Shown piece after piece: positions 20,525 through 64,000 of a stretch of DNA of 64,000 nucleotides. Source of the DNA: a virus; IMG/VR virus record IMGVR_UViG_3300002131_000090, positions 32,001 through 96,000 of that record. One strand, 5' to 3'. The notes below the pieces were generated by a model, which had not been told where the DNA came from, made no database searches, and was given only the letters and a program-made list of their open reading frames with translations. Numbering within the stretch: the stretch's first letter is position 1; each line of letters starts with the position of its first letter. Position numbers and translations under genes: made by a program.

Positions 20525-21409
20525 ATGTTTCAATATACAAAAAATAATCATATAAAATGTTCGTTTTCAAGTGGCATTCTTAACCTTGAACACGGAAAAT
20601 GTAATTCGCATAAATCGTGGCGAGAAGAATGTAAAAGCGTAGCACAAGAGCTTTATGACTTACACGGTAACAAATTAGTTGTTACACTAAGTGGCGGGTT
20701 AGATAGCGAAGTAGTATTACACAGTTTTATTGCTAACGGAATTATTCCAAAGGTAGTTATACTTAGATATGAACGCAATTTAAATCTTCACGATATAAAC
20801 TATGCTTTACGTATATGTGCTGCTAGGCAAATATCACCTAAAATAGTTGACGTAAATGTTTCAGAGTTTTTTAGAACAGACTTATTAAACTATGCTAATA
20901 TTACAAAATGTAGTAGTCCTCAACTAAACTTGTTAATAAATAGTATCGACAATATAGACGGTATTCCTGTTATAGGAGCAGGCGAAAACTATCTTTCTCG
21001 TAAAGAAGGCAAAAAAGAAGTCTACGATTTAGAAGAAGCTAAGATAGCAGCAATTTATAAGTTTTATGAAAATAAACAACGTGAAATAATACCTGCGTTT
21101 TTTCAATATACTCCAGAATTAATGATTAGTTACTTACAAAAAGAAAGTATGTATCGCTGGGTAGAAACTGCTAAACAACAAAAATATATAAACAGTAAAA
21201 AAATTAAACCAAGTATTATTGCTGAAGACTTTGATATTGAACCTAGAGGAAAACTTACAGGGTTTGAACTTATAGACGAACTTGAAAGGCATCAACGATC
21301 TGTGCTAACTAATGAAAATTTAGGTGATGATGGAGAACAATGGACTAATTTTGAAGATTATATTAAAGAATTTGGTGTTGATTTATTAAGAGATATAAAC
21401 TATGTCTAA
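20525..21409 (+). CDS. PP-loop (N-type ATP pyrophosphatase) family protein
   Basis: VTLSGGLDSE motif; probable start ATG 20525. Confidence 0.65.
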   Translation: MFQYTKNNHIKCSFSSGILNLEHGKCNSHKSWREECKSVAQELYDLHGNKLVVTLSGGLDSEVVLHSFIANGIIPKVVILRYERNLNLHDINYALRICAARQISPKIVDVNVSEFFRTDLLNYANITKCSSPQLNLLINSIDNIDGIPVIGAGENYLSRKEGKKEVYDLEEAKIAAIYKFYENKQREIIPAFFQYTPELMISYLQKESMYRWVETAKQQKYINSKKIKPSIIAEDFDIEPRGKLTGFELIDELERHQRSVLTNENLGDDGEQWTNFEDYIKEFGVDLLRDINYV

Positions 21410-21938
21410 ACACAAACTTATTAAATTTTTAAATAAAAAAAATATTTCATTAGGATTAAGTAACAATACAACCGATCTACGTCCTGTAGAAAATGTAGGA
21501 TATGGAAGATTTGCTACACAAAATATAAACGAAGATGAAATCATTTATCGTGCAGGCGGTATGTGGATAACCGATGAAGAAAGAAATTGTTATGAACAAG
21601 ATTACTTCCATTTAGTTGAAGGATGTTGTTTTTTTCAAGGTGGATTAAAGTATTATCTTAATGGATGTCATAATCATAGTTGTGAACCTAATGCTTACGT
21701 ACAAGAAAATATTATACGTGCATTAAAAGATATTAAGAAAGATGAACAAATTACTATCGACTATGCTAGTTTTATTGATCACGGGTATACTATTTTAGCA
21801 GAGTGTAATTGCGGTAGCAACACATGTAGAAATCACATTACAGGTAATGACTGGCAGTTGTATAATCTACCATTAAAATATAACTATAGGGTTAGCGGTA
21901 GTATACTTAGAAAGTGGCTACTTTCTCAAAAAACTTAA
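21402..21938 (+). CDS. SET-domain protein with a post-SET Cys motif
   Basis: GYGRFA, NHSCEPN, ITIDY, CNCGSNTCR. Confidence 0.85.
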   Translation: MSKHKLIKFLNKKNISLGLSNNTTDLRPVENVGYGRFATQNINEDEIIYRAGGMWITDEERNCYEQDYFHLVEGCCFFQGGLKYYLNGCHNHSCEPNAYVQENIIRALKDIKKDEQITIDYASFIDHGYTILAECNCGSNTCRNHITGNDWQLYNLPLKYNYRVSGSILRKWLLSQKT

Positions 21939-22956
21939 TATAGTTTTTGGCATTGGCTGTAAACATTGGAACAAACAACAATACATCATTATGCTGCCTA
22001 ATTAAGTATCCTTCTTTTTGTAGTTCTCTACGAACATAAATTCCGTCATTAACTTTTATTCCAAAAACTAATCCACGATTAGTATAATCTAAATTGTATT
22101 TTTTTAACTGTGTTATAAATTGCTCCTGTGTATTTTTATTATTAACAGTATTTAATAACTCAATTGTTTTTAGTAAAGTTTGACAAGCAATAGGGTGTCC
22201 AGACATAGTATACCCATGCGAAAAAACACTGTCTGTATTTTTTATATAATTACCTATACTTTCATTTACCATCACAGCACTTAGAGGAAAAAGTCCGTTG
22301 GTTAGTCCTTTACTGGTTATAAGTATATCCGGTTTCCAATCAAAGCTATAGTCTGCTCTTCCAAGGCCGGTTACAGTTTCGTCAAATATTATATTAAAGT
22401 TGTATAGTTTTTTTAACTCAAATAACTGCTGTAACACTTCAGTATCAAACTCTATAACACCTTTTGTGACCATCATTGGTTCTATTAAAACTGCGCTTGT
22501 TTGGTTGTTTACAGCGTCTACAAGCGTCTTGTAGCTATCAAAAACTTGTGCTTGTGTGTTAGATCCATGATAAGCGTCTTTGTACGCTAGTACGTTAGAT
22601 TTACTGTTATAATACTTACTAATATAAATTGCACTATCAATAGCATCGCTGCCACTATGCCCAAAGAATACTCTATTATATCCAAAGTGTTCGCATATTG
22701 TTTTAGCAGCAAGTTCGGTAACATCGGTACTACTCCAAAAATGTGTAGGATAGAAATGTATATCAGTATTAAAAGAATCAGCATAACTAGGATTATTATA
22801 TCCGAAGTTTACATTCCATAATCCACTATTACAATCAAAGTATTGTTTACCGTCTTTATTGTAAACTATATCGTTGTTTCCTGAAACAAATATTTCAGGA
22901 TCTGTAAATCTACTATGATTAGTATACGAGAATATTTGATTAGACATTAAACTCAT
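21907..22956 (-). CDS. Class III PLP aminotransferase (compact)
   Basis: GLWNVNFGY, SGSDA, YHG, IEP, FDETVTGLGR, SKGL, HGYTMSGHP. Confidence 0.9.
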   Translation of the reverse strand: MSLMSNQIFSYTNHSRFTDPEIFVSGNNDIVYNKDGKQYFDCNSGLWNVNFGYNNPSYADSFNTDIHFYPTHFWSSTDVTELAAKTICEHFGYNRVFFGHSGSDAIDSAIYISKYYNSKSNVLAYKDAYHGSNTQAQVFDSYKTLVDAVNNQTSAVLIEPMMVTKGVIEFDTEVLQQLFELKKLYNFNIIFDETVTGLGRADYSFDWKPDILITSKGLTNGLFPLSAVMVNESIGNYIKNTDSVFSHGYTMSGHPIACQTLLKTIELLNTVNNKNTQEQFITQLKKYNLDYTNRGLVFGIKVNDGIYVRRELQKEGYLIRQHNDVLLFVPMFTANAKNYIKFFEKVATF

Positions 22957-23572
22957 CTATTGTATTTTCAATACAATTTCCTATTAAAAAGATAGTGTCG
23001 CACCCTTCTCCTGTTATAACACTATGCGTATATTTTGGATCAAATATAAATGCATCACCTTCGTTGATTATTAGCTTATTGTTGTCATAGGTAAATTCCG
23101 AATGTTTGTGATTTTTACTAATACATTGAACATATCTCAATGGACTATTTTTATCAACATGCATCGGTGTCTCGTGTGGCCCTTTATGAATACTATACCA
23201 CAGATACATAAAATTACGAGTTTTACAAGTACTATAGTATTTCTTTTTGTCGGCAATACTTTCATGACTAACACTATGAAGAGGCACAGTTTTATATCCG
23301 TTTTCAGCTAATACTGTACCATCGGCTCCTGTATGTAAAGTTGTTGTATATGCTGTTTTACCTAAAAATTTATAACTAGGCGTCCAGATATATTCCGCAG
23401 TGGTATTTTTTTCTTTGATGTTCTGATTCTCATCACTATATATAGTAATCATAATAAAGTCGTGTATTACACTGCTAAAAACTTTGTGCAGCTCATGATT
23501 AATTTGTGTATCAAATACGTGTTTAAAATAGATTGGATCAAACAGCGGCTTAATAAATTTTATATTGTTCAT
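22940..23572 (-). CDS. Cupin / 2OG-Fe(II) oxygenase-like protein
   Basis: PMHVD...GDAFIFD...HSV. Confidence 0.6.
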   Translation of the reverse strand: MNNIKFIKPLFDPIYFKHVFDTQINHELHKVFSSVIHDFIMITIYSDENQNIKEKNTTAEYIWTPSYKFLGKTAYTTTLHTGADGTVLAENGYKTVPLHSVSHESIADKKKYYSTCKTRNFMYLWYSIHKGPHETPMHVDKNSPLRYVQCISKNHKHSEFTYDNNKLIINEGDAFIFDPKYTHSVITGEGCDTIFLIGNCIENTIDEFNV

Positions 23573-25335
23573 AGTTTAATAGGTACCTGACTATTTCTCT
23601 GATCTCCGTCTATTGGATACATCCAACTAGTGTTGTATGTCATATTTCCTGTAAGATCGTTGTGTTTTATTAATCCGAGGTGATACTTACCGATCCATTC
23701 AATATTTGATTTATAAACATAGTCAGGTACTATTCCAGAACATAGTGCATCTGTAGCTTCATGATGATTTAATCCAAAACTACGGAGTCTCGGATATGCC
23801 CAAAAACTTACATTATAGTCAGCATGTCTTTCAAACTGTGTTCGAGGATGGGTTTCCATTATAGTTTCCCATCTTAACGCAATTTCTTTAGCTTTAGTTA
23901 AATCCATAGTACCGTGTCTCCAATAGTATTCGGGATCCCATCTTACTTCTTGTATTCCAAATTTGTCAGACTTGTCACTAAAAGCATTGCTTGTACGTCC
24001 ACCAGCATCTGATATGAAAAGTATTTCGTATTGTGCTTTATCAATAACTTGTTGATTAAGTAACCAATCAGCAGTATCCATTAAACTTTCTTCAGTTTCG
24101 CCAGGAAGCCCTACTATAAAACTAGTAAGTATAAAGATTTCGTCTCCTGCCGTTTTGCGAATCCACTCTAGTATTCCTTTGATTTTTTCAGGGTCTAAAC
24201 CTTTACCGGCAATTTTTGCTGCTGTATGATTAAATGTTTCAACGCCAAGGAACATACCTCTACATCCCATGTCTAGCATTTTATCTAACATTTGTGGAAA
24301 TTTGTAAAACATATCCGGTCTAGTATAAGCAATCCACTCGATCTTAAACGGCAAGCTACTAATAACATCATGCATCATATTAATTTTTGCCATACTGTCA
24401 TTTACAGTGTCATCAGTTAATTGATATCCTGTAGTACCAAATGTTTTATAATTATAAATTAATTCTCTTCTTAAACATTCAGCACTTTTAATAACTGTTC
24501 CACTATGATCATAGAAACAGAACTTACATCCAAATCTACAACCTTTTGATATTTCTAATGGAAGCCATTCTCCCGGCTGTACACTATCTAACGGTAACCA
24601 TTTTGTTTGTGTAACTATTGCACCTTTACCTGCTAATGCCGGTTCGTTAATAAATGTCACTCCGTCTTTTATGCGTACTTGAGACGGATTTAATTTTCCG
24701 TTTAAAAAGTCAACAATTGTACTTTCGCTATATCCATGAAAAGCATAATCAACATAATCTATCATTGCTTTAGGCAATATCTTACCTATTTTGCTATGTA
24801 CAAAGTGCTGTTTATATATTGTATCTACTAACGCTCCGCCTATTATTATTTTTGCGTTTGGCGCACGACGTTTTAATTCCTTAAACCATTCGCAACATTC
24901 TTCATGACTAAAATGCCATAAATTAAATTTTCCTTGAGTAGGATTAAAAGGATTATTTAAAAACGTTAAACTTAAAGCAACATACTCAGTATCTGGTGTT
25001 ACTAACTGTTCAAAGAAATCAAAGAAGTTATCTAGTTTAGTAAAATAATCAAAAACTATTGCTTCGTACGTTGTGTGTTCTCTAATATTACTAGCTACAG
25101 TATAAGGCCCCATGTACCTAGTCCAGAAGTTGTACTTACTACTACCTAAATATTTGCCACCTACATAGTTAGTATTTTTAACTGATATCTCAAAACCTGT
25201 TTTGCTATTAACATCCTTGAAGGCACTGCGATACATGTCTTCACGTTCATCTTTTTCAAGAAAGTGCGATCTAAATTTTGTACCACCAGTTCCTCTTACA
25301 TCGTAAATGTCACTTAATATTATTATTCTACTCAT
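23569..25335 (-). CDS. B12-binding-type radical SAM enzyme
   Basis: LEISKGCRFGCKFC, IIIGG, DDT, GVET, IVGLPGET. Confidence 0.85.
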   Translation of the reverse strand: MSRIIILSDIYDVRGTGGTKFRSHFLEKDEREDMYRSAFKDVNSKTGFEISVKNTNYVGGKYLGSSKYNFWTRYMGPYTVASNIREHTTYEAIVFDYFTKLDNFFDFFEQLVTPDTEYVALSLTFLNNPFNPTQGKFNLWHFSHEECCEWFKELKRRAPNAKIIIGGALVDTIYKQHFVHSKIGKILPKAMIDYVDYAFHGYSESTIVDFLNGKLNPSQVRIKDGVTFINEPALAGKGAIVTQTKWLPLDSVQPGEWLPLEISKGCRFGCKFCFYDHSGTVIKSAECLRRELIYNYKTFGTTGYQLTDDTVNDSMAKINMMHDVISSLPFKIEWIAYTRPDMFYKFPQMLDKMLDMGCRGMFLGVETFNHTAAKIAGKGLDPEKIKGILEWIRKTAGDEIFILTSFIVGLPGETEESLMDTADWLLNQQVIDKAQYEILFISDAGGRTSNAFSDKSDKFGIQEVRWDPEYYWRHGTMDLTKAKEIALRWETIMETHPRTQFERHADYNVSFWAYPRLRSFGLNHHEATDALCSGIVPDYVYKSNIEWIGKYHLGLIKHNDLTGNMTYNTSWMYPIDGDQRNSQVPIKL

Positions 25336-26866
25336 ATAAGTTATTTTTCCTCAAGTATTCATTTGCTATTTTTTTATAACTATCAGCGTGTTGTTTAATC
25401 CAAGTAGTATTATACTTATTAGCATTTATTAGTTCATTATGCGTAAATCCTAGGTTACTACATCTACTGTAACCCAAGTAGGATGTCATAATGCGTTTTT
25501 GCCAAGCAGGACTCTTTTGTGCTTCTTCTATAATATTTATCATAGCAGTTTTTGTCATGTCTCCGTTTTGCCATTCCTCGACATATATACCTTTATCATT
25601 AGGCTCAAGTATTACATCGTATCCGTATGTCTTAGGATCCTTTTGTATTTTACTATAATCAATGGTATATGCCTTGTTAGGATCATATCCACCTATGTAC
25701 AACGGAGTTATTTCCCAAGCATTGAGCCAAGGTTGTGATCCAATCCAGTCTACTAACGCTTGGCACGTTTGTAATGTTTCACCTGGCAGTCCTAAAATAA
25801 ATCCGCTGCCCATTACAATACTATCGCCCCAGCTATCTCTACATTTTTGTAAAGCACTTTCAATAATATTTTTACGTGTAACTTTACCTATCAACGGACC
25901 TACAGCATCAGTTACAGTTTCGATACCCCATTGAATACTACGACAACCGCTTTCGGATATCATGTTAATCATTTCAGGTTTTTGATACAGTAAGTCTAAT
26001 CGACCAAATCCTGTCCAAGTAATATCAAATGGTAAGCTAGTAAACACACGATGTATCATAGACATCTTTTCCATATTTTCATTTATTTGAAAATCTGTTA
26101 ACATGTAGTGAGTTGTGCCAAACTTATCGTGGTTTTCTAATAACACGTTGCGTAGATGCGTTTCATCTAATGTCCAACTGTTTACTGCTTTTTTAGGATA
26201 ATCACAAAACGCACACTTAAACGGGCAGCCTCTACTTATTTCTAGTGGTAGTGCTTCACCTGGAAATATAAAGTCGCTTTCGTCCCAATGGATTTTACTA
26301 AACTTAAACTCTTTCTCGGTTATACTTCCGTAATCAGATTCACTCTTAATCTTAAGAGGTACTGTTTTATTACTTTGCAAATCTGTAAGTAATCCAATAA
26401 TACTACGATCGGCCATTCCGCCTACCCAATAATCAACCATTGGATATCTTTTTTGTAGTGCTTGTTTTTGAGCAACTTTTTGTCCACCAACGACAATACG
26501 TATCTGAGGATGTTTATTTTTTGCGTAATCAAACCACTGTGTTATTTCATCTTGCGGAAACGGAAAATATACATTCCACATATTGCTTTTGCGTGTTCTA
26601 CTATCAGCGCTCCAATGTGTTTCCCAGTCTTCCGGCATTAGTGTACTGAAGTGTGTACTACTAAACCCTAGAAATACAGTGTCGTTACTTACATACAAGT
26701 CAATAGCACGTTTAAATCGTTCATAGTTAAAATGACTAAAGAAGTCTATAACTTTAACACAATAACCGTTTTCACGTAATCTACTAGCCACAGTATATGC
26801 GCCGGCATCTCGACCCCAGCCGATACTTCCATTACATTCTGTGAATAGTACTACATCATAATTCAT
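25328..26866 (-). CDS. B12-binding-type radical SAM enzyme
   Basis: RDAGAYTVASRLR..GYCVKVIDF; LEISRGCPFKCAFC; GIET; ILGLPGET. Confidence 0.88.
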   Translation of the reverse strand: MNYDVVLFTECNGSIGWGRDAGAYTVASRLRENGYCVKVIDFFSHFNYERFKRAIDLYVSNDTVFLGFSSTHFSTLMPEDWETHWSADSRTRKSNMWNVYFPFPQDEITQWFDYAKNKHPQIRIVVGGQKVAQKQALQKRYPMVDYWVGGMADRSIIGLLTDLQSNKTVPLKIKSESDYGSITEKEFKFSKIHWDESDFIFPGEALPLEISRGCPFKCAFCDYPKKAVNSWTLDETHLRNVLLENHDKFGTTHYMLTDFQINENMEKMSMIHRVFTSLPFDITWTGFGRLDLLYQKPEMINMISESGCRSIQWGIETVTDAVGPLIGKVTRKNIIESALQKCRDSWGDSIVMGSGFILGLPGETLQTCQALVDWIGSQPWLNAWEITPLYIGGYDPNKAYTIDYSKIQKDPKTYGYDVILEPNDKGIYVEEWQNGDMTKTAMINIIEEAQKSPAWQKRIMTSYLGYSRCSNLGFTHNELINANKYNTTWIKQHADSYKKIANEYLRKNNLYE

Positions 26867-27306
26867 AATTCTTTAATCACGTAACAATTTAATTCACTAG
26901 TTTCAGTTTTAAAGAAGTCACTTGTTTGTTCAAACCCGGCATTTAAATAAGTTTTTAACGCTGTTTTTCTCGGTAGACTCCAACAATACTTTTTATTTTC
27001 TTTAACCGCTAACTGTATTGTATATTCCAATAATAGTTTGCCTATATTATTATTTCTATATTCAGGCATTACATACAACCCTCTACTTCTATAATGTATT
27101 CTACTAGTAGCATGTCCACTATTAACACCTACTACAGTGTTATCAATTATATATCCAAAAAACGTAGGGACGTAATTTTTTAATATGCCTTTATATGCAA
27201 TATCATTATAACGCATAGTACTCATAGGCATTATAATAGCACGATTGGGCCAGAGATATTTCTGCCAAAATTCATAAACTGTTTCATAGTCAAGTTCCTT
27301 AATCAT
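26863..27306 (-). CDS. GNAT acetyltransferase
   Basis: LYVMPEYRNNNIGKLL motif A; YLNAGF motif B. Confidence 0.85.
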   Translation of the reverse strand: MIKELDYETVYEFWQKYLWPNRAIIMPMSTMRYNDIAYKGILKNYVPTFFGYIIDNTVVGVNSGHATSRIHYRSRGLYVMPEYRNNNIGKLLLEYTIQLAVKENKKYCWSLPRKTALKTYLNAGFEQTSDFFKTETSELNCYVIKEL

Positions 27307-28300
27307 ATTGATCTCCTACAATAACGTGTTTTGGAACTAGATATTGATAAATTTTATTTGCACCTTGATTAAATGTATTTCCGCTTGCACCTACTCCACT
27401 ATGAGGCATTTCGATCGGAGTAGTCATAGGCTTATTTACAAATATATTTCCCCAACGAGCGTGTTGTGATACAAATCTTTGTGTTTTTAACTCCGTTGTA
27501 TATAGGTGTAACCCTAATCTATTTGGAAGTTGATTTATTTGCTTTATTAACTCTTGTAGATTATCGTATTGACTCATAGTTGCTTCTGGTCTGAAGTGAT
27601 CAATGTTTGTGAGTTGTTGTTCTTTGACACAATTTAGATTTTCAATTAACTGCGCAAACAAATTACGTTTACAAAAAATGTGTTTAGGACTGGTACAATC
27701 GGCGCCGCCATTATATTTAATACTCCAATCTAGGCTGTTAGCAATAAAACTAATATTGCCGTCATTAACAATAGCAACACTTGCTCCACCTATATCAGCA
27801 ATTACATCATTATGATGTTGTTTAAAAAAATCTGCCGTTGTTTTACTACCAGTAATATCAATAAAGTCATATATGCTAAAGTCAACAGTGTCAACTACAT
27901 TAACTTGTACTTTATTTTTCCAATTAGAAAATATAAATGGTACACTTCCTTTGTTTTTAGGATTTAACTTTACATCAATAGTACAACCAGCAGCAATAGC
28001 CGGAGCAATCTTCCACATAGCAATAACTAATGGATAATTCCACGGTACAACTCCTAGACAATGACCTTTTGGCTCATAACGCATGCTACTAGTACAAGTG
28101 TTATAATACTCATCTTGCGGAGGTGCTGTTATTGTTCGGGAAACACCAGCATAAAAATTGCAGATATCAATTGCAGTATTTACATCAAAATCTGCGTTGT
28201 TTTTAAAGTCAGTTGTTTCGAGCTTAACTATTTTTTTAAAGTTATCTTGTATAAACTTAGATAAAGAGAAAAGAGTATTTTGACGATCTTGTGGTTTCAT
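27299..28300 (-). CDS. Aldehyde dehydrogenase-family protein (shortened)
   Basis: PWNYPL..WKIAPAIAAGC, TGS, DIGG, catalytic Cys (GADCTS), MPHSGVGASG. Confidence 0.85.
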   Translation of the reverse strand: MKPQDRQNTLFSLSKFIQDNFKKIVKLETTDFKNNADFDVNTAIDICNFYAGVSRTITAPPQDEYYNTCTSSMRYEPKGHCLGVVPWNYPLVIAMWKIAPAIAAGCTIDVKLNPKNKGSVPFIFSNWKNKVQVNVVDTVDFSIYDFIDITGSKTTADFFKQHHNDVIADIGGASVAIVNDGNISFIANSLDWSIKYNGGADCTSPKHIFCKRNLFAQLIENLNCVKEQQLTNIDHFRPEATMSQYDNLQELIKQINQLPNRLGLHLYTTELKTQRFVSQHARWGNIFVNKPMTTPIEMPHSGVGASGNTFNQGANKIYQYLVPKHVIVGDQYD

Positions 28301-28355: not shown

Positions 28356-28928
28356 TCAAAGGATTACTGCAACTAAATGAATTCTATCTTCTTTACTAGC
28401 ATTAAATGCAGTATGAAGTAATACTGTATTTGTCCAATACCAGTTATTTAATTCTAAATATTTTATTTCATTTTCAATAACCATAAAACACCCGTCTTGA
28501 GTCTTAACAGGGTAATGAATTCTGGTTGAATCATCTCTATGCCAGGACAAGCAAGTTTTTGATTTAGATTTCATCAAACGCACTCGACCTAATTTGTACT
28601 TATTACACAATTGCGTATATACATCTTCAAAAAGAGTATTTTTAAACTGAGAACACAATATTGAAAAGTCTTGTTCGGTATATTTTACTTTATATTCTGG
28701 TATTTCAAAAGACTCATTTCCGTATTCATCTGTTATTGTTTTTGAATTATTCCAATCTAACACTAAACTGCCGGTGCCTAGTAAATAGTTGTCAGGATTT
28801 TGTTCTGTAGTATTAATACAAATCTGATTTTCTTTAGTCCATTCTATTGTTTTATTTTCGATAAGTTTGTTGAGTTCGGAATATAAATCGTATATTGGTA
28901 AATTATCTAAATTTTTAAAATTGTTCAT
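28356..28928 (-). CDS. Asp/Asn beta-hydroxylase-like 2OG-Fe(II) oxygenase
   Basis: RVRLM...SWHRD..RIHYP...HTAFN...DRIHLV. Confidence 0.75.
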   Translation of the reverse strand: MNNFKNLDNLPIYDLYSELNKLIENKTIEWTKENQICINTTEQNPDNYLLGTGSLVLDWNNSKTITDEYGNESFEIPEYKVKYTEQDFSILCSQFKNTLFEDVYTQLCNKYKLGRVRLMKSKSKTCLSWHRDDSTRIHYPVKTQDGCFMVIENEIKYLELNNWYWTNTVLLHTAFNASKEDRIHLVAVIL

Positions 28929-30922: not shown

Positions 30923-30936
30923 ATATAAAAATACCT

Positions 30937-33464: not shown

Positions 33465-33469
33465 AGTTT

Positions 33470-46322: not shown

Positions 46323-46329
46323 TGACACT

Positions 46330-55877: not shown

Positions 55878-56584
55878 TATTTTTGATCTCTTTTGTCGTA
55901 CGGTTGGGTTGTTACAGGATCGACCCAATATAAACTTCTGTGCGGCATATCATCTGTTTTGTACTGAGAATCACTTGTATAATAAAATAATCTAAAAGTT
56001 GTACGTTGTAAGTCTTCCGGACAAGTCAACGGTTCTTTGTATCCGTGAAATCCTAATTTATGGTATTGCCAAATTACTGCTCTGTTGAATACACAATCAA
56101 TTGCGTTTACAAGATTGTTATTTTTAAAATCATAAAATCCTAGTGCGCCTCCCCAATCAGGATTCCATTCTGGAGTAAGATAAACAATAAACGATAATGC
56201 TCTGTGTAATTTTAATTTTTCATTCCAGTTAAAGTCAGTGTGAACTTTTAGAGAATCATTTTTAAAACTTTTGCTGTAACCTGCACCTGTTAAATACGGA
56301 TCCGGAATCAAGCTACCAATACCGGTTAGTTCTTCTAACCATAATAGCATTTTAGGACTATGCATATACTCTACAAACTTTGATGCAATTGGTAGTACTG
56401 TTAAGTCTTTACATTCCTTCATATAACTTTTATTTCTAGTAAATTCAGACCAGTGAGTATCATCAACTGTACGAGTTTCGTTGTACATACTTTTAGCAAA
56501 ATCTATATCTAAAAAGTTATCTACACAAGCTGTTGGTACAGGGTCGTTAAATTTTGTTATATTTAAATTATTTGATAAACTCAT
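55877..56584 (-). CDS. 2OG-Fe(II) oxygenase (prolyl-hydroxylase-like)
   Basis: VHTDFN, VYLTPEW...GG.L, FHG, R..FRLFYY. Confidence 0.85.
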   Translation of the reverse strand: MSLSNNLNITKFNDPVPTACVDNFLDIDFAKSMYNETRTVDDTHWSEFTRNKSYMKECKDLTVLPIASKFVEYMHSPKMLLWLEELTGIGSLIPDPYLTGAGYSKSFKNDSLKVHTDFNWNEKLKLHRALSFIVYLTPEWNPDWGGALGFYDFKNNNLVNAIDCVFNRAVIWQYHKLGFHGYKEPLTCPEDLQRTTFRLFYYTSDSQYKTDDMPHRSLYWVDPVTTQPYDKRDQK

Positions 56585-56602
56585 GATGCATCCTTTAAAT
56601 AG

Positions 56603-56630
56603 ATTATAACAGCTAGATATTATTTGTCAA
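56603..56630 (-). promoter_or_regulatory. Sigma70-type promoter
   Basis: Minus strand TTGACA-16-(TGt)TATAAT; AAGGA before ATG 56584. Confidence 0.7.
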
Positions 56631-57543
56631 GCAGTTTCTTGTGTATATACTCTGCTACACGACAATGGTCTAAGTGTCCTGGATGTATTAAGTCTCGTGC
56701 ATCGCATGTAAATTTAAAATAAGTTGATCTTGCAAAACGTGCTGCTGCTGGAAAGTACGAAAACTCAACTAACGGTACTCTGTCTTTACACAGTTGTTTA
56801 AATGATTTTGCTGTATAGTATGTTAACATGTTTTCGTTGTATATGTCTGTGTTTCTATATTGATATAATTTTAATAGTGTTTCTTCTCGTTTACCATTTA
56901 CATTAAAGGCATTCCATAATCCAATTTGCCAATATCCTTCAAATTCAAAATAACGAAAACGATCGCAAGCTGTCCAATTAACTGCAATTGCATGTGGACG
57001 ATCAAATCTTTCTAATAACAATGCTGCTGTATGAAGTAGTAATTCGTTTGATGCACTAGGTATGCCCAAGTTTACAACCTGGCGACCTGTTAATTGTTCT
57101 AATTCATATGCTATTGTTTCGTCATCCGAAACTCCAACACCAAATGTATTCGAGCATCCAATTAGAACAATAGCATCCTTCCAATTTACATCTTTCCACT
57201 CATAAGTTCTAAAACCGTTAGAGTTTAACTTATATGTTACTTTCTTATTTCTATACTTCCAATCCGGAGGCATTTTTTTTAGACTTTCTTGTAATGATGT
57301 AATTGAATCAGTATTACTATACTCGTCTGGGTTGATTCCATTCTCAGGAGTAAATCTCCATAATTTAAAATCAAAAGGCAGTAACGGATCCATTGCATAC
57401 TCAGGAAACGTCGATTGATCTTTAACTAGTTCAATTATGTCACCGTCAAGAATTCTTTGTAGTCGTTGTTCTTGACGTACTTGAGCTTTTGCTTCGAGTC
57501 GTTGTGTTTTTGCTTCGAGTTCAGATAATCTTGATTTTTTCAT
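56620..57543 (-). CDS. SGNH/GDSL-like protein
   Basis: GCSNTFG, NLG..SASN, D..HPG. Confidence 0.7.
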   Translation of the reverse strand: MKKSRLSELEAKTQRLEAKAQVRQEQRLQRILDGDIIELVKDQSTFPEYAMDPLLPFDFKLWRFTPENGINPDEYSNTDSITSLQESLKKMPPDWKYRNKKVTYKLNSNGFRTYEWKDVNWKDAIVLIGCSNTFGVGVSDDETIAYELEQLTGRQVVNLGIPSASNELLLHTAALLLERFDRPHAIAVNWTACDRFRYFEFEGYWQIGLWNAFNVNGKREETLLKLYQYRNTDIYNENMLTYYTAKSFKQLCKDRVPLVEFSYFPAAARFARSTYFKFTCDARDLIHPGHLDHCRVAEYIHKKLLDK

Positions 57544-58565
57544 TGTAGACTTAATATGTGATTATGTAAATATTTAGCAAACAAATCATGTGCTTTTTCT
57601 CCAGGGTGAGCACACGGTGTAATCCATCCATTTGGAGACCTGTTTCCTAAAAATTGGAAATAGTAATCAGTCCTATCTTCTACATCAGGTTCTTGCGATA
57701 ATGCTAATTCTGCAAAAGTTTTCTTGTTAGCAGGAGAAAACATCAATCTCCAAGGAAACTGATTTAATAACTTTCTACTGTGCTTAGGATCCCACGACGG
57801 CTTTAACTCTACAGGTATTGTATTATTGTAGTCGTCTGCTCTTCTTACATCTTGTTTTAATATGTATTCAAAATAGTCTTTGTCGTACCTTTTATCAAAC
57901 CCAGGAGTGATAATTAACTTAGCATTATTGTGTGCTGTACACCACGATAATAATTCTTGAACATGTCCAATTTGTTCAAGAACTCCAAACTTTTCGCTCC
58001 ATAAATTTTTTCCGTAACCTTCCCAAAGAGTTCTTCTGTCAGACGGTTCCATACTTTCGTAATGAGGCCACATACAAACCCATCTAAAATGATCGTCGCA
58101 TGTATCGTTAATAAAGTCAAATCTTTCAAGGCCGCTTGGCATGTATACTACAATAACTTCTTTTGCAAGACTCCACCTAATATCAGGATGAAAATAAAGT
58201 TCTTTAATCGAGCCGCGATTGCCGCAGCCTCTAAGTCCGAGATTTATTGGAGTATATGTATGATTAAAGTATCTGTTACATAGTATATTTACAAATGAAT
58301 TTGCATATTCTAAAAAGGTAAAATCAATGCTGCCGTCTTTTGCCCTTTTTGTAGCGGGATATTGTTTTAATATTCGTTTAACGTCTTTATCCGTTAGCGT
58401 AGGTTTTAACGATGCTCCTTCGCCTTTGTATTCCCATTCAAAGTTATCATACAAGGTATCGTTAATTGCACCCTGTCCTTGTACAAAGGAACACCCGATT
58501 GATATTATTGCTTTACCTGTTTTTTTTAAACTATCGTTTATTTCTTCGACTTGAGAATTGTACAT
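57540..58565 (-). CDS. SGNH/GDSL-like protein
   Basis: GCSFVQG, NLG..GCGN, HPGEKAH. Confidence 0.7.
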   Translation of the reverse strand: MYNSQVEEINDSLKKTGKAIISIGCSFVQGQGAINDTLYDNFEWEYKGEGASLKPTLTDKDVKRILKQYPATKRAKDGSIDFTFLEYANSFVNILCNRYFNHTYTPINLGLRGCGNRGSIKELYFHPDIRWSLAKEVIVVYMPSGLERFDFINDTCDDHFRWVCMWPHYESMEPSDRRTLWEGYGKNLWSEKFGVLEQIGHVQELLSWCTAHNNAKLIITPGFDKRYDKDYFEYILKQDVRRADDYNNTIPVELKPSWDPKHSRKLLNQFPWRLMFSPANKKTFAELALSQEPDVEDRTDYYFQFLGNRSPNGWITPCAHPGEKAHDLFAKYLHNHILSLQ

Positions 58566-59877
58566 CGTTTTCCTTAAAATGATTTGTCAACATGTTAACT
58601 GCAGGACTGACAGTTACTCTAGTATTTAACAAGGTATTACTATTGTGAATTAATATTGATTTTAGTCCTTTAAATAACTCAAACTTTTCATCGTTGTTCA
58701 TAGCGTTCAAACGTTTTAATTCTGTAATTATTGCATACAAACGATCCCATGTTTCTAGTTCATCATATGCTTCGTTTATAAAAGGATGAAATGTTTTGTA
58801 ACCAAGTTCCTTAAGGTGTTTTAACGAATGTCGATTTCCAAACATAATAAAAGGATGATTACATGCTATTGTTTTAAATGTTTTTTCACTTAAAAAACAA
58901 GTATTTGTATTGTCACTGTAGTGTGCTTCGCTGATTACACTTAACCAAGTGTCTAGTGTAATTTGTTCGTTAAAGTTAGTTAAGTAATTTCCACAATCGC
59001 TGTCTGCAAACCCTTCTACATTTTCTGCATTAGGAGGGGTCATAGGCATCAATGGCAACAACTTTTTATAAAGATCGTGCCCAACTTCTTTTCCGTCCAT
59101 ATGAGAATAAAGTTGTGCAAAATGATTCATACTATTAATATTGTTGTTTAGCAAGTCTGCATTATATAGACAACTAAAGAGATGCGCCCTGTGATTTCTT
59201 GGTCTTTTTTGTAAACAATTAAAAGTTTTAATATTTGCTAAGTTGCTTTCTTTATATCTTTTTTGCTGTTTAAAAGAAGGCACCCCTTGACGATATGCTA
59301 TTTCAGCCATTGATGATTCAAAGTGCGGATATGGTATAACTAAGATACGGCTACTGTGTACATGTATAGTTGCCCATTCGTCATATTGCTCTTTACTTGC
59401 CATGTTTCCAGTGACATATATTACTTGCTTAGGATCAATTTTATATTCTGTACACTGATCATGAAACCATTGCCATTGCCATGTTTCTTGATAACCTTCA
59501 TGTGATTGATCTAATAATAAAAATGCCTTTCCAGATTGTAAGTCTTCTAAATAGATTGGATTTAACCAATAAAACACCGACTGCTGGTTCATTGAAAATG
59601 CTTTGCTGTTTGAATAATTTTTAAAGCCGCCGGACCAGTTATCCGGAGAATGTGCAACTCCTGATGAAAGAATATAGTTAAATCCTTTAGACGGTCTATT
59701 TTTTGAAACTACTATATCATCTAGCAACCCATCTACGTCTTGCCCTAATCTTATAAGATGTAATAATAAAGGAGTGGCTGTAAATCTTTTTATGCCAGAG
59801 CTATTAGTATCACCGCATTTTACAAAATTTAAAAATACGTTTGTTTTTTCTTCTATTTCTTCAAACATAAAATACAT
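58531..59877 (-). CDS. Putative glycosyltransferase-like protein
   Basis: R.HR, ISE, LSEKTFK..ACNHPFI, LGYKTFHPFINEAYD. Confidence 0.5.
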   Translation of the reverse strand: MYFMFEEIEEKTNVFLNFVKCGDTNSSGIKRFTATPLLLHLIRLGQDVDGLLDDIVVSKNRPSKGFNYILSSGVAHSPDNWSGGFKNYSNSKAFSMNQQSVFYWLNPIYLEDLQSGKAFLLLDQSHEGYQETWQWQWFHDQCTEYKIDPKQVIYVTGNMASKEQYDEWATIHVHSSRILVIPYPHFESSMAEIAYRQGVPSFKQQKRYKESNLANIKTFNCLQKRPRNHRAHLFSCLYNADLLNNNINSMNHFAQLYSHMDGKEVGHDLYKKLLPLMPMTPPNAENVEGFADSDCGNYLTNFNEQITLDTWLSVISEAHYSDNTNTCFLSEKTFKTIACNHPFIMFGNRHSLKHLKELGYKTFHPFINEAYDELETWDRLYAIITELKRLNAMNNDEKFELFKGLKSILIHNSNTLLNTRVTVSPAVNMLTNHFKENDVQFSSRRNKR

Positions 59878-60879
59878 TTAAATTAATCTTTCCTTCCAGG
59901 TTCTTGGAGTTTTAGAGTTTACTATTTCTAAAGGAAACGTATAATCAAACGGTTTGGTGCCGCGCTTTTTGATATAATCGATTGTACGTTCAACTGCTGT
60001 TTCTAAATCTGTTGTTGTTTTATAGTTTAATACTTGTCTTGCTTTGTCTGCACTACATGTTGCATGTTTAACTTCTTGTGGTCTGTCATCTACATGTATC
60101 GGTTGTAAGTTACAACCGGTTTTGTTAGCTATTAAATTTGCCAAATCTTTAACTGTAATTGTTCCTTCATCTGGTCCGATGTTTATTATTTGTCCTACAA
60201 TATCGTTGTCTAATATAAGTTTTTCAAGACACTGTATACAATCGTCTACATAACTAAAGCATCGTGTTTGTAAACCATCGCCATATATAATAGCAGGCTT
60301 ACCTTGTAAATTTCTGTTTATCATAATGCTCATTACGTTTCTAAACGGATCGTCATAGCGTTGTCTTGGCCCTACAATGTTGTGAGGTACTGCTATATTC
60401 CATTCCATTCCGTGCGTATCACTTAGCATACGCAATGTATCTTCGCCTGCTACTTTTGCAATGCCATATGGATCTACAGGCATAGGCTTCATATCTTCGG
60501 TAAACGGAGTTTGTTGATTTCCATAACGTGCCATACTAGAGCAATATACAAAGCGTCTTACTTTATTTTCTAATGCTGCACTAATTGTAGAGACTGTTGC
60601 TTGAAACACGTTTTTAGTAATAAAGTCGGGGCTTACTACACTTAGACCTTCGTGTGCTGTTGCAGCAGTATGTATTACAACATCGACATTTTTCATTATG
60701 TCTGCCATACGTTCTCTGTTGCAGCAATCTACTTTGTAAAGTGTTGCTTTATGATTTACGTTATCTTCATACCCACCAATTAAGGTATCATTACCTAATA
60801 CGTCGTGTCCTAAATTAATCATTCGATCGGCTAAATGGCTTCCTAGAAAGCCTGCTATACCTGTTATAAAAATTCGCAT
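59878..60879 (-). CDS. NAD-dependent NDP-sugar epimerase/dehydratase (extended SDR)
   Basis: [31 protein letters not shown]. Confidence 0.92.
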
Positions 60880-61568
60880 ATTCTCTCCGCAAAATAACTA
60901 TGTGCTGTTTCTGAAGGATGGAATCTAGGCATAATCCATCCGTTAAGTTCAGGAAACTTTTTATCTGTAAAATGCATTTCCATCATGGAAAGCTCTGCTG
61001 TTGAGCCTGCTTGTTTTACTGTCCAATCAAAGAAGTTAGAACATCCGTCAATAGTTAAAAATCTATCCCATTCAACTGAATTAACAAAGTTACTATTAAT
61101 AATTTTATAGAAATATTCTTTATTATATTCTCGTGTAAATGCAGGAAACATAATAAGGTTATGTCCATTAGCTTTACAAAAATTTTGAATATTAACAATG
61201 CTTACAATTGCATTTAAAACTTCTGTTTTTGCCGAAACAAAAAAAGACAAAGCCTTTTCAAGATTTACAAGTTCAACAGAACCAATGTTAACAGGTGAAG
61301 TATGCGGAAAGACATGCTCAAAGCCGTTGCCGTCGCGTCTAAATAAGTCAACTCTGTTCATACCAGTCGGCATAAAAATTACTGTAGAATTACTAGGAAT
61401 GTCTGCCATTAGTACTCGCGTTACTGCACCTGCATTACCGGATGATTCTTCTCCCAAGTTAATACCGCCAAGGCAATCTATAAAGGACTTGCCTTTTTCA
61501 ATTTCTGCACCTTGCACAAAAGAACACCCAGTGCCGATAATTATTTTATTAAGTTTACGTTTTTTCAT
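60864..61568 (-). CDS. SGNH/GDSL-like protein
   Basis: GCSFVQG, NLG..SSGN, HPSETAH. Confidence 0.7.
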
Positions 61569-61577
61569 ATTGCGTTT

Positions 61578-62264
61578 TTAATGTATATCTAAAAATTCTT
61601 TTAACTGCGGATACATATAATTATTACAATATCTCATGTATGCTTCAAGTCTTGGGTGGTTGCCGTCTTTAAAAAACGGTAATTTATTTTTACGACACCA
61701 ATCAACAATAGGGTTGTTAAAGATGTTAACATTATGTTTAGATAAATGTTCTTCAAATATTATTTTTTGATCGGTTGTAATTACAGTATCCCAGCCATAC
61801 ACTACAAATGTATTAGGTGTCATCTTTTTAGCAGAGATTATGTAAAATAAAAGATCCTCAAGATGCTGTTCAACATCCATTAGATCTCCGCCGGTTTCTT
61901 TTTGAGAAAAATATGAATGAGATAAGAAATCAATTCTTTCTTTTTTATCAAAAATATTTATAGACTTTATAACAGTTGAAGCAAGAGCATTTTTATTTTC
62001 ATTTTTTTGCTGTTTAATAAAAAAAGGAGTCATTGGTTTTCTTAAATAACTACGTTCTGACCCAGTTATTTGCCATATAACTATATCGTTAGTAGTAATA
62101 GGAGTATTAAACATTAGTTCTTGAAATCGACGTTGCTGTAAACCATTGGAACTTGAAGATTGGGCAAGATTTATTAATGGAATTTTCATAGATTCCGAAA
62201 GACACCTTGCCCATCCCACGTGATGTGTAATACTGCAACCTAATGTTATTAATCTATCATACAT
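61578..62264 (-). CDS. SGNH/GDSL-like protein
   Basis: GCSIT, NLA..SSSN, DGNHP. Confidence 0.7.
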   Translation of the reverse strand: MYDRLITLGCSITHHVGWARCLSESMKIPLINLAQSSSSNGLQQRRFQELMFNTPITTNDIVIWQITGSERSYLRKPMTPFFIKQQKNENKNALASTVIKSINIFDKKERIDFLSHSYFSQKETGGDLMDVEQHLEDLLFYIISAKKMTPNTFVVYGWDTVITTDQKIIFEEHLSKHNVNIFNNPIVDWCRKNKLPFFKDGNHPRLEAYMRYCNNYMYPQLKEFLDIH

Positions 62265-63621
62265 AACTTTTGCATAAATTCCAAAATTCTGTCATTTCAG
62301 GAAATGTTTCTAATAAGTTTGTATTCCTTCTACGATCATATTCAGTAAACCAATTGTAAAAATCTTTTCTACCTTCGGTTATTTTATGGTCATCGTATTT
62401 TACAGTGGCAAAATAATTTCTTACTCTGCGAAATCTTTCATATTCTAGGTCACTAAACTTAGTTGTATCGTTGTCATCTTTGTTATCTTTGATAAATTGT
62501 AAGATGTTATCAAAGTAAGGAAGGAATTCTTCCTTAGGAAGTATGTGCATATCGTACTGCAAGGGTTCTTTAAGATAAGGAGTGTCAAATCTAATTCTAC
62601 GTCTCTTTGGATCGTGATACTGTTTTCTCCATTCAAGAACTTTTTCTAAAAAGTCAGTAAAACTAGTGACACTTAAAATGTTAAATGTACACATTACTGT
62701 CAGGTCGGCGCCAGTAATATCGAGGTAATTCTTCATATTACTTTCCCACAACTCTACGTTTAAACCAGTACGCAGGTATTCTGCACGTTTGCTGAATGTA
62801 TCTATACTGGTATACAATTTAAACTTGTTGATTGTATTCGTATCTAGAAGTTCTTTTACGTTGTTAGATAATTTTGTAACTAATCGCGGAGTTACTCCGA
62901 GGTTGCTGTTTAAGTTAAGTTCAAGATTAGGTCTTGGCTCTTCTCTGAGTCTATCAAACAAATTCCAAGTGCTTTTGTGCATAAGTGGCTCGCCGCCGGT
63001 AATGCGTAAAATGTTTAATGTTTTACTTAGCTCGGGCCACCATTCCCACCATGCTTTAATATAAGGATTGTCATCTTCGGGAATTGGAGTAAACCAATCT
63101 ACGTCAAGTGCGTGATTTTTTACAGTAGTATAAGGTCCAAACTTTTTAATTTCAGCATGAAAACTACTACTTGCCATTGGGTGACAATATCCACATTTGA
63201 AATTACATTCATTACTAAATGCAATTTCAACGTATTCAGGATTAACATTAAAATCCCAAGGGTTATCAAGAATTTCTTTTATACGTTCTGGCTTATAGAT
63301 ACTTTCATTACGAATCATTCTATCTGATATATGATCAGTACCTAGCGATTCGACATTCCAACAGTACTTACACCCTGCAGGCTTTTCTCCAATTAACATT
63401 TTTGCACGTTCTTTTTTCTTAATAAGCGTATTATGCAATGCACTTGGATTGTTTTTTATTTCAGCTAAATCAATTGCATGTGGAGCAGGATGATAACAAC
63501 TGTGCGTTTGCCCGGTATGCAAATATATTGTAGTATGATGCCACTTTGCCAAACAGAATGTTGGGCTTATTTCGTCCATTTCAAATGTACGATTTTTTAT
63601 GTTTTCTGTTTCAGATGTCAT
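62257..63621 (-). CDS. Radical SAM enzyme with an N-terminal twitch-like domain
   Basis: FCLAKW..HSCYHP..CKYC; CNFKCGYC; GGEP. Confidence 0.9.
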   Translation of the reverse strand: MTSETENIKNRTFEMDEISPTFCLAKWHHTTIYLHTGQTHSCYHPAPHAIDLAEIKNNPSALHNTLIKKKERAKMLIGEKPAGCKYCWNVESLGTDHISDRMIRNESIYKPERIKEILDNPWDFNVNPEYVEIAFSNECNFKCGYCHPMASSSFHAEIKKFGPYTTVKNHALDVDWFTPIPEDDNPYIKAWWEWWPELSKTLNILRITGGEPLMHKSTWNLFDRLREEPRPNLELNLNSNLGVTPRLVTKLSNNVKELLDTNTINKFKLYTSIDTFSKRAEYLRTGLNVELWESNMKNYLDITGADLTVMCTFNILSVTSFTDFLEKVLEWRKQYHDPKRRRIRFDTPYLKEPLQYDMHILPKEEFLPYFDNILQFIKDNKDDNDTTKFSDLEYERFRRVRNYFATVKYDDHKITEGRKDFYNWFTEYDRRRNTNLLETFPEMTEFWNLCKSYV

Positions 63622-64000
63622 GTTTCGATATCAATGAATTGCTGCTCAGAGTTTCTTGCTGGATTTTGATAAACTGTTTTAAAGAATTTACTGCCGCCGG
63701 CGTCTAACGGCATAACACCTATTGGGAGATCGAGTTCGTGTTTAAGAGTTTCACCAATTGATTCTATTTCGTCAATAAGATTTTCCTCGGTTACTTCCAT
63801 ATTATTCCACATGTTGTTAAGATACTCAAAGTCACGAACGTTGATATAATCCCAATCTGTACACATAGTTTTATACAAACCTTCACGAGCTCCGTAGATA
63901 GCCCATAATCCATTTTCAACATCGGCACCAATCATAAGCCAAATATATAAACGATGCAAGTTTTTCCAATGATTCTTTTTAAATTCATCATAGGATACCT
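63618..64000 (-). CDS. Partial gene (5' part outside the window), C-terminus resembling the GT-like 51787-53130
   Basis: RLYIWLMIG...WAIYGAREG...DFEYL parallels RLNTWCTLG...LAISGANFG...DFDWL. Confidence 0.55.
   Translation of the reverse strand, partial: VSYDEFKKNHWKNLHRLYIWLMIGADVENGLWAIYGAREGLYKTMCTDWDYINVRDFEYLNNMWNNMEVTEENLIDEIESIGETLKHELDLPIGVMPLDAGGSKFFKTVYQNPARNSEQQFIDIET

Follow-up and report, generated by a model that had tools for sequence, protein, structure and literature searches.

The stretch analysed here, referred to as the window, comprises 64,000 nucleotides (bases 32001-96000 of the linear 146,632-bp IMG/VR virus record IMGVR_UViG_3300002131_000090), and from 20507 onwards it is occupied by an island of enzyme genes with 14 predicted radical S-adenosylmethionine (rSAM) proteins. 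Judged by gene order and similarity, this marine island has grown out of a small set of core genes that is also present in a cultured phage, RsoM2USA of Ralstonia, a relation that went unnoticed in the first-pass annotation of the window. Tentatively, and with a confidence somewhat short of even, we favour the reading that the island serves to build a glycan in the cytoplasm and to tailor it by radical chemistry, and that this glycan would most likely be placed on virion or fibre proteins. The observations under this reading are the gene content, the synteny, the variability of the cassettes, the solubility of the products and the link between rSAM proteins with an N-terminal twitch domain (N-twitch) and glycosyltransferases (GTs).

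Architecture of the island and its core

Open reading frames (ORFs) were called mechanically, and those of at least 89 residues were counted for the island. Genes are named by their first coordinate in the window, whose numbering is continued past its end, and are on the minus strand unless marked (+). Between 20507 and 64000 there were 45 such ORFs, 42 of them on the minus strand. The others are 20507, 21402 and 33536, the last being the sole plus-strand gene inside a block that begins at 21907 and extends beyond the window to record position 134159. For the 56 genes of this block as far as the fibre genes, the intergenic distance had a median of -4 nt, and only eight gaps exceeded 40 nt. The last island gene, 63618, ends at 64541, 541 nt beyond the window end. 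The GC content was 0.29-0.35 in the block, compared with 0.34-0.41 to its left.

A hydrophobic segment was found in none of the island proteins, and the chemistry is therefore likely to be cytoplasmic. The same check showed ten such segments in a sodium:solute symporter encoded at 5233-6699 (+) (Pfam SSF, E 5e-23), a gene unusual for a phage.

When 63618 was searched by tblastn against 50,697 phage records, one full-length homologue was obtained (46% identity), the GT-A-like gp350 of RsoM2USA (MG752970, 343.8 kb). Its neighbours gp349, gp348 and gp347 are homologues of 62257 (an N-twitch rSAM, 35%), of the C-terminal half of 51787 (45%) and of 50958 (29%), and gp354, gp353 and gp352 correspond to 66783 (33%), 65944 (33%) and 65109 (36%). 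Upstream of this core lie an epimerase-like gp358 and a giant gp361. ORF356, ORF359 and ORF361 of RsoM2USA are virion proteins by mass spectrometry (MS), ORF362 is annotated as a baseplate wedge, and the core genes are all annotated 'hypothetical' (PMC8504454). From this synteny, the ancestral unit is read as a GT-A-like protein, an N-twitch rSAM, a second GT-A-like protein and a Rossmann-like protein, in that order, behind fibre genes. Relative to it, the window would carry an insertion of ~9 kb (53133-62264) that separates the second member from the third, and ~29 kb after the fourth.

A scan of IMG/VR gave 52 related loci, and searches of public metagenomes gave more than 2000 homologues of 34513, with 70-92% identity for the best 120. 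One order of anchors recurred in many loci: 63618, a 53133- or 62257-like gene, 51787, 50958, 49903, a nitroreductase-like gene, 48843, 43512, a 37160-like gene, several N-twitch rSAMs, 34513 and 32352. Past 32352 the relatives carry homologues of window genes 15188 to 10736 in reverse orientation, and across the 52 loci the inserts between anchors vary from contig to contig. In four large relatives, which include one complete genome of 344 kb with terminal repeats and another of 330 kb rated 93% complete, 9-14 genes each lie above the cut-off of the N-twitch family NF033640; in the closest of them (G002) the island has the same boundaries as in the window. Two direct repeats of 100 nt (family D2, 89% identity), at 50163-50262 and 50962-51061, flank a sulfotransferase-like gene that only some of the relatives carry. 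In the repeat, the 3' end of 50958, the gene upstream, is duplicated. With its conserved anchors, variable inserts and repeat-flanked presence/absence cassette, the comparison gives good support to cassette exchange at a fixed site, and the cassette swapping proposed in the first-pass annotation is borne out. With fibre genes on both of its sides, and with anchors conserved and inserts variable across the 52 loci and four large relatives, the island has the marks of a host recognition cluster (HRC), a non-syntenic island with tail-fibre genes within the structural module.

The same variability might be taken to mean that the island is a permissive insertion hot spot, in which independent cassettes of several unrelated functions (anti-defence, metabolism, protein modification) are collected. 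The content does differ strongly among relatives, a single-gene cassette stands between direct repeats, and the enzyme classes are mixed, SET, aldehyde-dehydrogenase-like and nitroreductase proteins included. The N-twitch paralogues of the island, moreover, share just 21-34% identity, and must hence be old and diverse rather than recent duplicates. Yet the anchor order is conserved across many contigs, the genes are tightly coupled, and modules recur, the set of an amidinotransferase, a pyridoxal phosphate (PLP)-like protein and an rSAM occurring twice in the island. We consider such a collection an unlikely account of the whole.

Converging on the island from the left are a tail-fibre gene at 15560-17602 (+) (Pfam Mtd_N, E 5e-11), a gene for a 957-residue protein with an S8 subtilase domain at 17613-20486 (+) (Peptidase_S8, E 1e-27), the two marking the left boundary, and the genes for a PP-loop protein and a SET protein. 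The position directly after a tail-fibre and a protease gene, as given in the first-pass annotation, was thus confirmed. Upstream of the island, on the minus strand, lie small conserved proteins (64538-68263) and three fibre paralogues of 484, 601 and 668 residues (record 101198-106503), which share ~220 N-terminal residues and differ in their C-termini (Peptidase_G2 in one, Collar in another and no match in a third). A 4639-residue fibre-like ORF (record 107141-121060) has CBM5/12 and FG-GAP matches and is 22% identical over 348 residues to ORF361 of RsoM2USA, a confirmed virion protein. A baseplate wedge gene is found further upstream on the same minus strand. By this arrangement the island fills the 3' end of a fibre operon.

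It may be noted that a MoxR-type AAA ATPase gene followed by one for a DUF2201 metallopeptidase/VWA protein (11501-13992, +) is kept beside the island in many related contigs, and also in contig L061, described below.

The completeness of the record was 41% (CheckV), implying a genome of ~350 kb. Outside the island there are genes for a baseplate wedge protein (phrog_10646, 977 bits) and for baseplate hub/lysozyme proteins, as well as for a gp55-like late sigma factor and for SbcD/SbcC-like gp47/gp46. Judged by these genes it belongs to a tailed phage with baseplate, late-transcription and recombination genes of T4 type, and the objection that the region might be part of a cellular contig is answered. 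The T4 late-promoter word TATAAATA occurred 8 times in the whole record, against ~37 expected from composition, and was not enriched upstream of the island genes; it is uninformative on timing. Although a gp55-like sigma factor is encoded, this lineage probably has a late promoter other than the T4 word.

In five studies (2015-2025) there were DNA runs that contained ~99% of the words sampled from this genotype; these runs were flagged as a possible source of this very DNA and so lend no independent support. Contigs from RNA libraries (four metatranscriptome libraries of two studies, 95-100% identity) span nearly all of 30901-50900. They were not counted as evidence of expression, and that interpretation was dropped, as contigs of RNA libraries can stem from DNA.

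Radical SAM enzymes

The motif CX3CX2C occurred in exactly 14 island proteins, the number given in the first-pass annotation, and in 1 of the ~108 other ORFs of the record. The 14 ORFs start at 23569, 25328, 30937, 32352, 34513, 35654, 38849, 41222, 42307, 43512, 44989, 48843, 53133 and 62257. The gathering score of Pfam Radical_SAM was reached by nine of them. Four more (42307, 43512, 44989 and 53133) missed it but exceeded the cut-off of NF033640, and for 48843 the assignment is a candidate one, with the motif at residue 18 and rSAM matches that are all sub-threshold.

NCBIfam NF033640 (N_Twi_rSAM, twitch domain-containing radical SAM protein) has a cut-off of 170 bits for the whole protein. 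Nine island genes exceeded it, with 215-417 bits: the core gene 34513-35691 (397 bits) and the adjoining 35654-36727 (251 bits); 38849-40174 (235 bits), which lacks one twitch cysteine in alignment A1; four consecutive genes at 41222-46308 (starts 41222, 42307, 43512 and 44989; 215, 254, 417 and 219 bits), of which 43512 is a core gene; 53133-54653 (301 bits); and the core gene 62257-63621 (316 bits). A tenth copy lies at record 7429-8733, near replication genes.

In this family a Cys-rich SPASM/twitch-like domain stands N-terminal to the SAM domain. A Pfam SPASM match was obtained at residues ~14-90, the N-terminus aligned with the C-terminal twitch of BtrN, and in alignment A1 C16, C84 and C87 were invariant and C34 nearly so. 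By classification with hidden Markov models these rSAMs belong to NF033640 and are not of the BtrN/HygY type cited in the first-pass annotation. To our knowledge, no member of this circularly permuted family, with its twitch at the N-terminus, has been characterized. A search for a close solved structure found none (best PDB match E 2.5e-9, to the core only), and no paper mentioning an N-terminal twitch rSAM was retrieved in the literature search.

Three further rSAMs are putatively of the B12 type: 23569-25335 and 25328-26866 (Radical_SAM 59 and 47 bits), and 30937-32352 (53 bits, with sub-threshold PhpK/HpnJ-like matches). All three aligned best with B12-dependent rSAM families, in keeping with the earlier suggestion of such enzymes, but fell far under every curated subfamily cut-off. 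They scored 94, 84 and 62 bits against the 600 bits needed for the PhpK-family P-methyltransferases (TIGR04479), a PhpK-type family being the best NCBIfam match of the first two, and Pfam B12-binding was seen for 25328 alone, below cut-off (E 0.0024). Enzymes of this type would imply a cobamide supplied by the host, a need that may constrain the identity of the host among marine bacteria. The remaining two rSAMs, 32352-33464 and 48843-49910, are core genes with a C-terminal Cys cluster (75-92% and 61-82% identity in relatives); at ~41-44 bits they are not members of NF033640.

N-twitch genes were also found in other settings. A 1.27-Mb contig of a candidate phyla radiation metagenome-assembled genome (MAG), labelled Candidatus Parcubacteria, carries seven of them in a row, along with homologues of 48843 and 32352. 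Around this array lie a GT1 glycosyltransferase, an rSAM-GT2 fusion and a Glyphos_transf/Capsule_synth protein, and further an AsnB-like amidotransferase, YrdC-like and Kae1-like carbamoyltransferase parts and an aminotransferase. Its flanks, inspected over 40 kb, showed no phage-like genes. NF033640 occurred in 1 of 201 sampled genomes of that phylum, so its cellular occurrence there appears sporadic. A second candidate for a cellular locus, the 38-kb contig L061 (JANWZV010000008.1, from a MAG labelled Candidatus Dojkabacteria), was set aside; it has homologues of window genes 8986, 11501, 12709 and 43512, and looks like a phage contig binned into the MAG.

Three clusters of metagenomic homologues were fusions of an N-twitch protein with a B12 rSAM, which suggests that both types act on one substrate. 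In P0121, P0123 and P0124 (~890 residues) the N-twitch part, 70-71% identical to 34513, is joined to a B12-binding rSAM. Tandem N-twitch fusions were also seen among the longer homologues, and one metagenomic N-twitch protein is fused to the C-domain of an EryCIII-like glycosyltransferase. With this fusion, the RsoM2USA core and the Parcubacteria array, the family is tied to GTs in three independent settings.

Some N-twitch genes are located in replication or recombination modules, and the island begins with a gene (20507-21409, +) for a PP-loop ATP pyrophosphatase that is weakly QueC-like (motif SGGLDS; 24.3 bits to Pfam QueC, confined to profile positions 1-73). A search with this protein gave matches to gp120 alone, which were judged spurious. 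Enzymes of the rSAM, PLP and GNAT classes occur in the hypermodification of thymidine. On these grounds the island could be an extension of the base-modification chemistry of the phage, acting on DNA or nucleotides. We think this quite improbable: the island lies in a fibre operon and not among the replication genes, the QueC match is confined to the PP-loop, and the island gave no match to a DNA glycosylase, kinase or transglycosylase.

Putative glycan-related and other tailoring genes

The core gene 63618-64541, which runs past the window end at 64000, encodes a GT-A-fold, glycosyltransferase-like protein of 307 residues. In a model built with 13 homologues (pLDDT 86), the first ~180 residues formed a GT-A fold, with a VIA Z of ~10 to many GT-A glycosyltransferases. 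The top Foldseek matches in the PDB were the peptide S-glycosyltransferases SunS and ThuS, the PBCV-1 capsid glycosyltransferase A64R, and TarP. The fold matches in a viral library were nearly all annotated glycosyltransferases, one of them from mycobacteriophage Che8. The DxD residues D65 and D67 were invariant in the homologues. A PDB sequence search with 63618 gave nothing and no Pfam GT family matched; the resemblance seen in the model is one of fold, not of function. The C-terminal half of another core protein, 51787-53130, is a paralogue of 63618 (35% identity). The Rossmann-like core protein 50958-51803 is by its motif a possible methyltransferase; neither Pfam nor the PDB (profile search included) gave a match for it.

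A NAD-dependent NDP-sugar epimerase/dehydratase is encoded at 59878-60879 (Pfam Epimerase, E 9e-48; GDP_Man_Dehyd, E 3e-39). Adjoining it is 58531-59877, a GT10-like (fucosyltransferase-like) candidate by its ESM Atlas score (0.78-0.79), and in other phages a domain of the 58531 type is fused to an NDP-sugar epimerase/dehydratase (ESM Atlas). Its paralogue 54654-55928 (46% identity over the C-terminal 93 residues, invariant E...EK motif) may be regarded as a lead. For this pair there was no Pfam match and no PDB match by profile, and tblastn of 58531 against the cultured phages gave nothing. A virus-encoded glycosylation cluster is defined by at least one GT and at least one NDP-sugar-modifying enzyme; the island has both, 59878 by Pfam and the GT 63618 at the level of fold only.

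Four SGNH-like proteins are encoded in two pairs, 56620 and 57540 (56620-58565), and 60864 and 61578 (60864-62264), 60864 being a paralogue of 57540. GCS, NLG, SxN and HP blocks could be aligned in all four. No Pfam SGNH family matched any of the four or their homologues, and Pfam domains were absent from all 120 homologues of 57540 among the matches listed. The model was weak (pLDDT 55); SGNH esterases alone reached a probability of 0.4-0.8, with E at least 0.09. The GT-like, SGNH-like and sulfotransferase assignments of the first-pass annotation thus go no further than fold or motif.

Genes of this kind might instead remodel the host envelope, where altered NDP-sugars or changes in host lipopolysaccharide or capsule could, for example, block superinfection. 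An O-chain modification has been proposed for ~45-kb islands with fibres, glycosyltransferases and rSAM cassettes (PMC7029224), and in cyanophage S-SCSM2R the amidinotransferase gene adjoins KdsA/KdsB and a GT. Among the island proteins, however, there were no membrane proteins, transport genes or steps linked to undecaprenyl phosphate, and no flippase, polymerase, ligase or exporter. The absence of lipid-carrier, flippase, polymerase, ligase and export steps weakens both a surface polysaccharide and a secreted metabolite as the product. In addition, the core is common to phages of unrelated hosts, and a surface pathway of 45 genes would be of little gain to a lytic phage. Envelope remodelling is in our view a rather improbable role.

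Direct modification of fibre proteins or peptides, in the manner of proteusins or other RiPPs (peptides made by the ribosome and then modified post-translationally) and with little or no glycan, has also to be considered. SPASM/twitch rSAMs commonly work on peptides, proteins are the substrates of P4H-type, Asp/Arg-hydroxylase-type and SET enzymes, an S8 protease gene is adjacent, and SunS and ThuS, the best fold matches of 63618, act on peptides. Among ORFs of at least 60 residues, no RiPP precursor with a conserved leader and a variable core was seen. The conserved 89-residue protein 49903-50172 was dropped as a candidate, as it has no cysteine and is evenly conserved along its length (alignment A4). 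No RRE, YcaO or transporter match was obtained, and the epimerase, the aminotransferases and the amidinotransferases would be left unexplained. We therefore regard such modification as unlikely to be what the island does. In agreement with the first-pass annotation, no family of nonribosomal peptide synthetases or polyketide synthases was matched, and no obvious RiPP precursor was seen.

Two amidinotransferases had been noted earlier, and both were substantiated by full-length similarity (E 1e-13 to 1e-23) to StrB1, HsvA, SxtG and AGAT. For 29760-30785, a PDB phmmer search gave HsvA (9e-20) and StrB1 (6e-18), as well as SxtG and AGAT; HCVTLD and GHaD in its alignment match the catalytic motifs of HsvA and StrB1, and the catalytic Cys is conserved. 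The second, 40167-41240 (StrB1 1e-23, HsvA 4e-20), is 42% identical to the first. Of the three PLP enzymes proposed, one stands by family, the class-III aminotransferase of short form at 21907-22956 (Aminotran_3, E 1.5e-40). The other two are short PLP-fold-I-like proteins, 28994-29767 (FSLSK motif, no family match, 26% identity to 37927) and 37927-38883 (FSTTK motif; Aminotran_1_2 E 0.042, sub-threshold; no result from a PDB sequence search).

Such genes, together with a GNAT acetyltransferase (26863-27306; Acetyltransf_7/1/10) and a shortened aldehyde-dehydrogenase-like protein (27299-28300; Aldedh, E 1.4e-38, profile positions 48-289 of 461), could point to a small molecule, guanidino or aminoglycoside-like, that is produced in the infected cell and diffuses. 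Analogous cyanophage genes have been termed 'antibiotic synthesis genes' (PMC12801897). However, the searches revealed neither an aminocyclitol-forming enzyme or scaffold synthase nor an exporter or resistance gene; in the Pfam results for the 45 island proteins there was no 2-deoxy-scyllo-inosose synthase or inositol-phosphate synthase. The aminoglycoside analogy drawn in the first-pass annotation thus loses its ground, and a molecule of this kind seems very improbable.

The remaining genes are of varied classes. A SET-domain methyltransferase is encoded at 21402-21938 (+) (Pfam SET, E 5e-13), a nitroreductase-fold protein at 33536-34516 (+) (Nitroreductase, E 9e-6) and an FkbM-family methyltransferase at 46355-47086 (Methyltransf_21, E 1.4e-18). 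The epimerase, FkbM, GNAT and nitroreductase assignments made earlier were all upheld by Pfam, and the aldehyde dehydrogenase in its shortened form with a partial profile. About six oxygenases had been proposed. Two were recovered by family, an Asp/Arg-hydroxylase-type cupin oxygenase at 28356-28928 (Asp_Arg_Hydrox, E 8e-8) and a P4H-type 2-oxoglutarate (2OG)-Fe(II) oxygenase at 55877-56584 (2OG-FeII_Oxy_3, E 1e-12). Three were recognized by an HxD...H motif: the possible 2OG oxygenase 37160-37930, whose relatives hold 22-25% identical homologues at the same position, and 47086 and 47607, which together with 48142, a protein with no family match, occupy 47086-48846. The cupin-like protein 22940-23572 is a possible oxygenase (Cupin_2 E 0.004, below cut-off), 36717-37163 is a 148-residue protein with no family match, and the sulfotransferase-like ORF 50263-50961 has an RTGST motif and a Stf0 match in Pfam of E 0.12.

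Proposed pathway and comparison with known systems

We propose that the island is a flexible accessory segment that forms the 3' end of a tail-fibre operon in a marine jumbo myophage. Inserted cassettes would have expanded a four-gene unit in the marine relatives, in the present phage to 44 kb. Its soluble products would act in the cytoplasm. GTs would attach sugars delivered as NDP-sugars, which 59878 and the aminotransferases may reshape. The NF033640 and B12 rSAMs would perform C-H chemistry on the sugars (oxidation, epimerization, deoxygenation, C-methylation), and amidino-, acetyl-, methyl-, sulfo- and acyl-transferases would append further groups. The acceptor would most likely be the phage's own fibre or surface proteins encoded just upstream, and the outcome a strain-specific glycan coat. 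The chemistry, a single product and the acceptor are inferred here from sequence.

This proposal is favoured for several reasons. The epimerase, the GT-A fold, the GT10-like pair, the FkbM, SGNH-like and sulfotransferase-like proteins, with the amino- and amidinotransferases, look like a glycan-tailoring set, as was also thought in the first-pass annotation. The island lies directly downstream of the fibres, and the RsoM2USA core beside virion proteins confirmed by MS. The genes are tightly coupled. N-twitch rSAMs keep company with GTs in the other settings described above. Further, an acceptor supplied by the phage is suggested by the core being common to a soil Ralstonia phage and marine phages. 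Of the earlier idea of one pathway that decorates the virion, DNA or the host surface, the evidence favours a phage-intrinsic, cytoplasmic target, short of proof, and does not establish a single pathway.

Several points weigh against glycan synthesis for virion proteins. The GT10-like, SGNH-like and methyltransferase-like assignments are made at the level of motifs, and nucleotidyltransferases reach a Z similar to that of the GTs with the GT-A-fold model of 63618. No sugar-1-phosphate nucleotidyltransferase and no GT2 or GT1 at Pfam level were found in the 146 kb of the record, and no Pfam GT family reached its threshold anywhere in it. PF00483 and PF00535 gave no match; PF03721 and PF00534 gave sub-threshold matches, none of them in the island. 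Proteins rather than sugars are the usual substrates of SET, P4H-type and Asp/Arg-hydroxylase-type enzymes. In other phages single N-twitch rSAMs stand between the homologues of SbcD and SbcC, and in L031-L039 one such gene and a second rSAM are inserted around these homologues (gp47/gp46), off the fibre genes; with these and the replication-gene locations, the family is not tied to fibres. Lastly, the 45 genes may belong to more than one pathway.

Should the proposal be carried further, NF033640 as a whole could be a largely phage-borne combinatorial toolkit for radical C-H chemistry on fibre-attached glycans, sometimes teamed or fused with B12 C-methylases, with cassette exchange giving each strain its own coat that tunes adsorption or hides the particle. 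We offer this as a speculation that is itself unlikely; if true, the enzymology would be new, and so would this layer of variation in the host range of abundant ocean phages.

The findings matter in other respects too. A single phage has ten members of NF033640, an rSAM family for which we know of no reaction, and relatives in marine metagenomes number in the thousands. Were the product a virion glycan, marine phage particles would wear variable, radically tailored sugar coats, which host prediction from sequence ignores. The four-gene core of RsoM2USA makes a finding from an uncultured phage approachable by experiment, and could give a first function to NF033640, to the 63618/51787 family and to the SGNH-like family, the latter two being without Pfam annotation.

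Like the marine island, RsoM2USA has syntenic core homologues beside a giant fibre-like protein and a baseplate wedge; unlike it, the phage has one rSAM only and no cassette expansion, and its host is a soil betaproteobacterium. Aminoglycoside pathways share several enzyme classes with the island, namely twitch rSAM, amidinotransferase, B12-rSAM methylase and aminotransferase (BtrN, StrB1, GenK-type). The island, in contrast, lacks genes for cyclitol synthase, export and resistance, and its twitch is N-terminal where that of BtrN is C-terminal. The glycosylation systems of viruses (PBCV-1 A64R, the Megavirinae fibril clusters and Che8-type) likewise use soluble GT-A proteins and sugar-nucleotide tailoring enzymes on structural proteins. 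A64R and the Che8 GT were among the fold matches of 63618, a similarity that is generic to GT-A, and the present system is read from genes alone. We know of no such virion glycosylation system with rSAM enzymes.

The closest likeness in overall form is to the HRCs of pelagimyophages and cyanomyophages, large non-syntenic islands in the structural region whose cassettes differ between close relatives. In pelagimyophages these are hypervariable, on average 44.6 kb long, and carry rSAM cassettes besides fibre and glycosyltransferase genes (Zaragoza-Solas et al. 2020, PMC7029224). The known HRC is flanked by VrlC and the neck gene gp14; the likeness described here is one of content and variability. 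The present phage, moreover, is of ~350 kb with a structural block syntenic to RsoM2USA, compared with ~150 kb for a pelagimyophage, and 14 rSAMs dominate its island. A double-digit number of rSAMs in a marine T4-like phage is also not without parallel: TARA_ERS488813_N000010 has 12 rSAM genes, discussed only as consumers of Fe-S clusters (Nishimura et al. 2017, PMC5332604). By contrast, the Fe-S assembly gene (PF01521) was not among the matches in the 146 kb of the present record. In cyanophage S-SCSM2R an amidinotransferase, an AHBA-synthase-type aminotransferase and an rSAM are listed as the 'antibiotic synthesis genes' mentioned above (PMC12801897). An amidinotransferase occurs in Campylobacter T4-like phages as well.

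In none of these papers are the rSAMs classified, a core defined or a cultured model named. Viral glycosylation clusters, like hypervariable host-recognition islands that contain rSAM cassettes, were already known; what is new is the extreme, rSAM-rich variant described here and the experimental handle that RsoM2USA provides.

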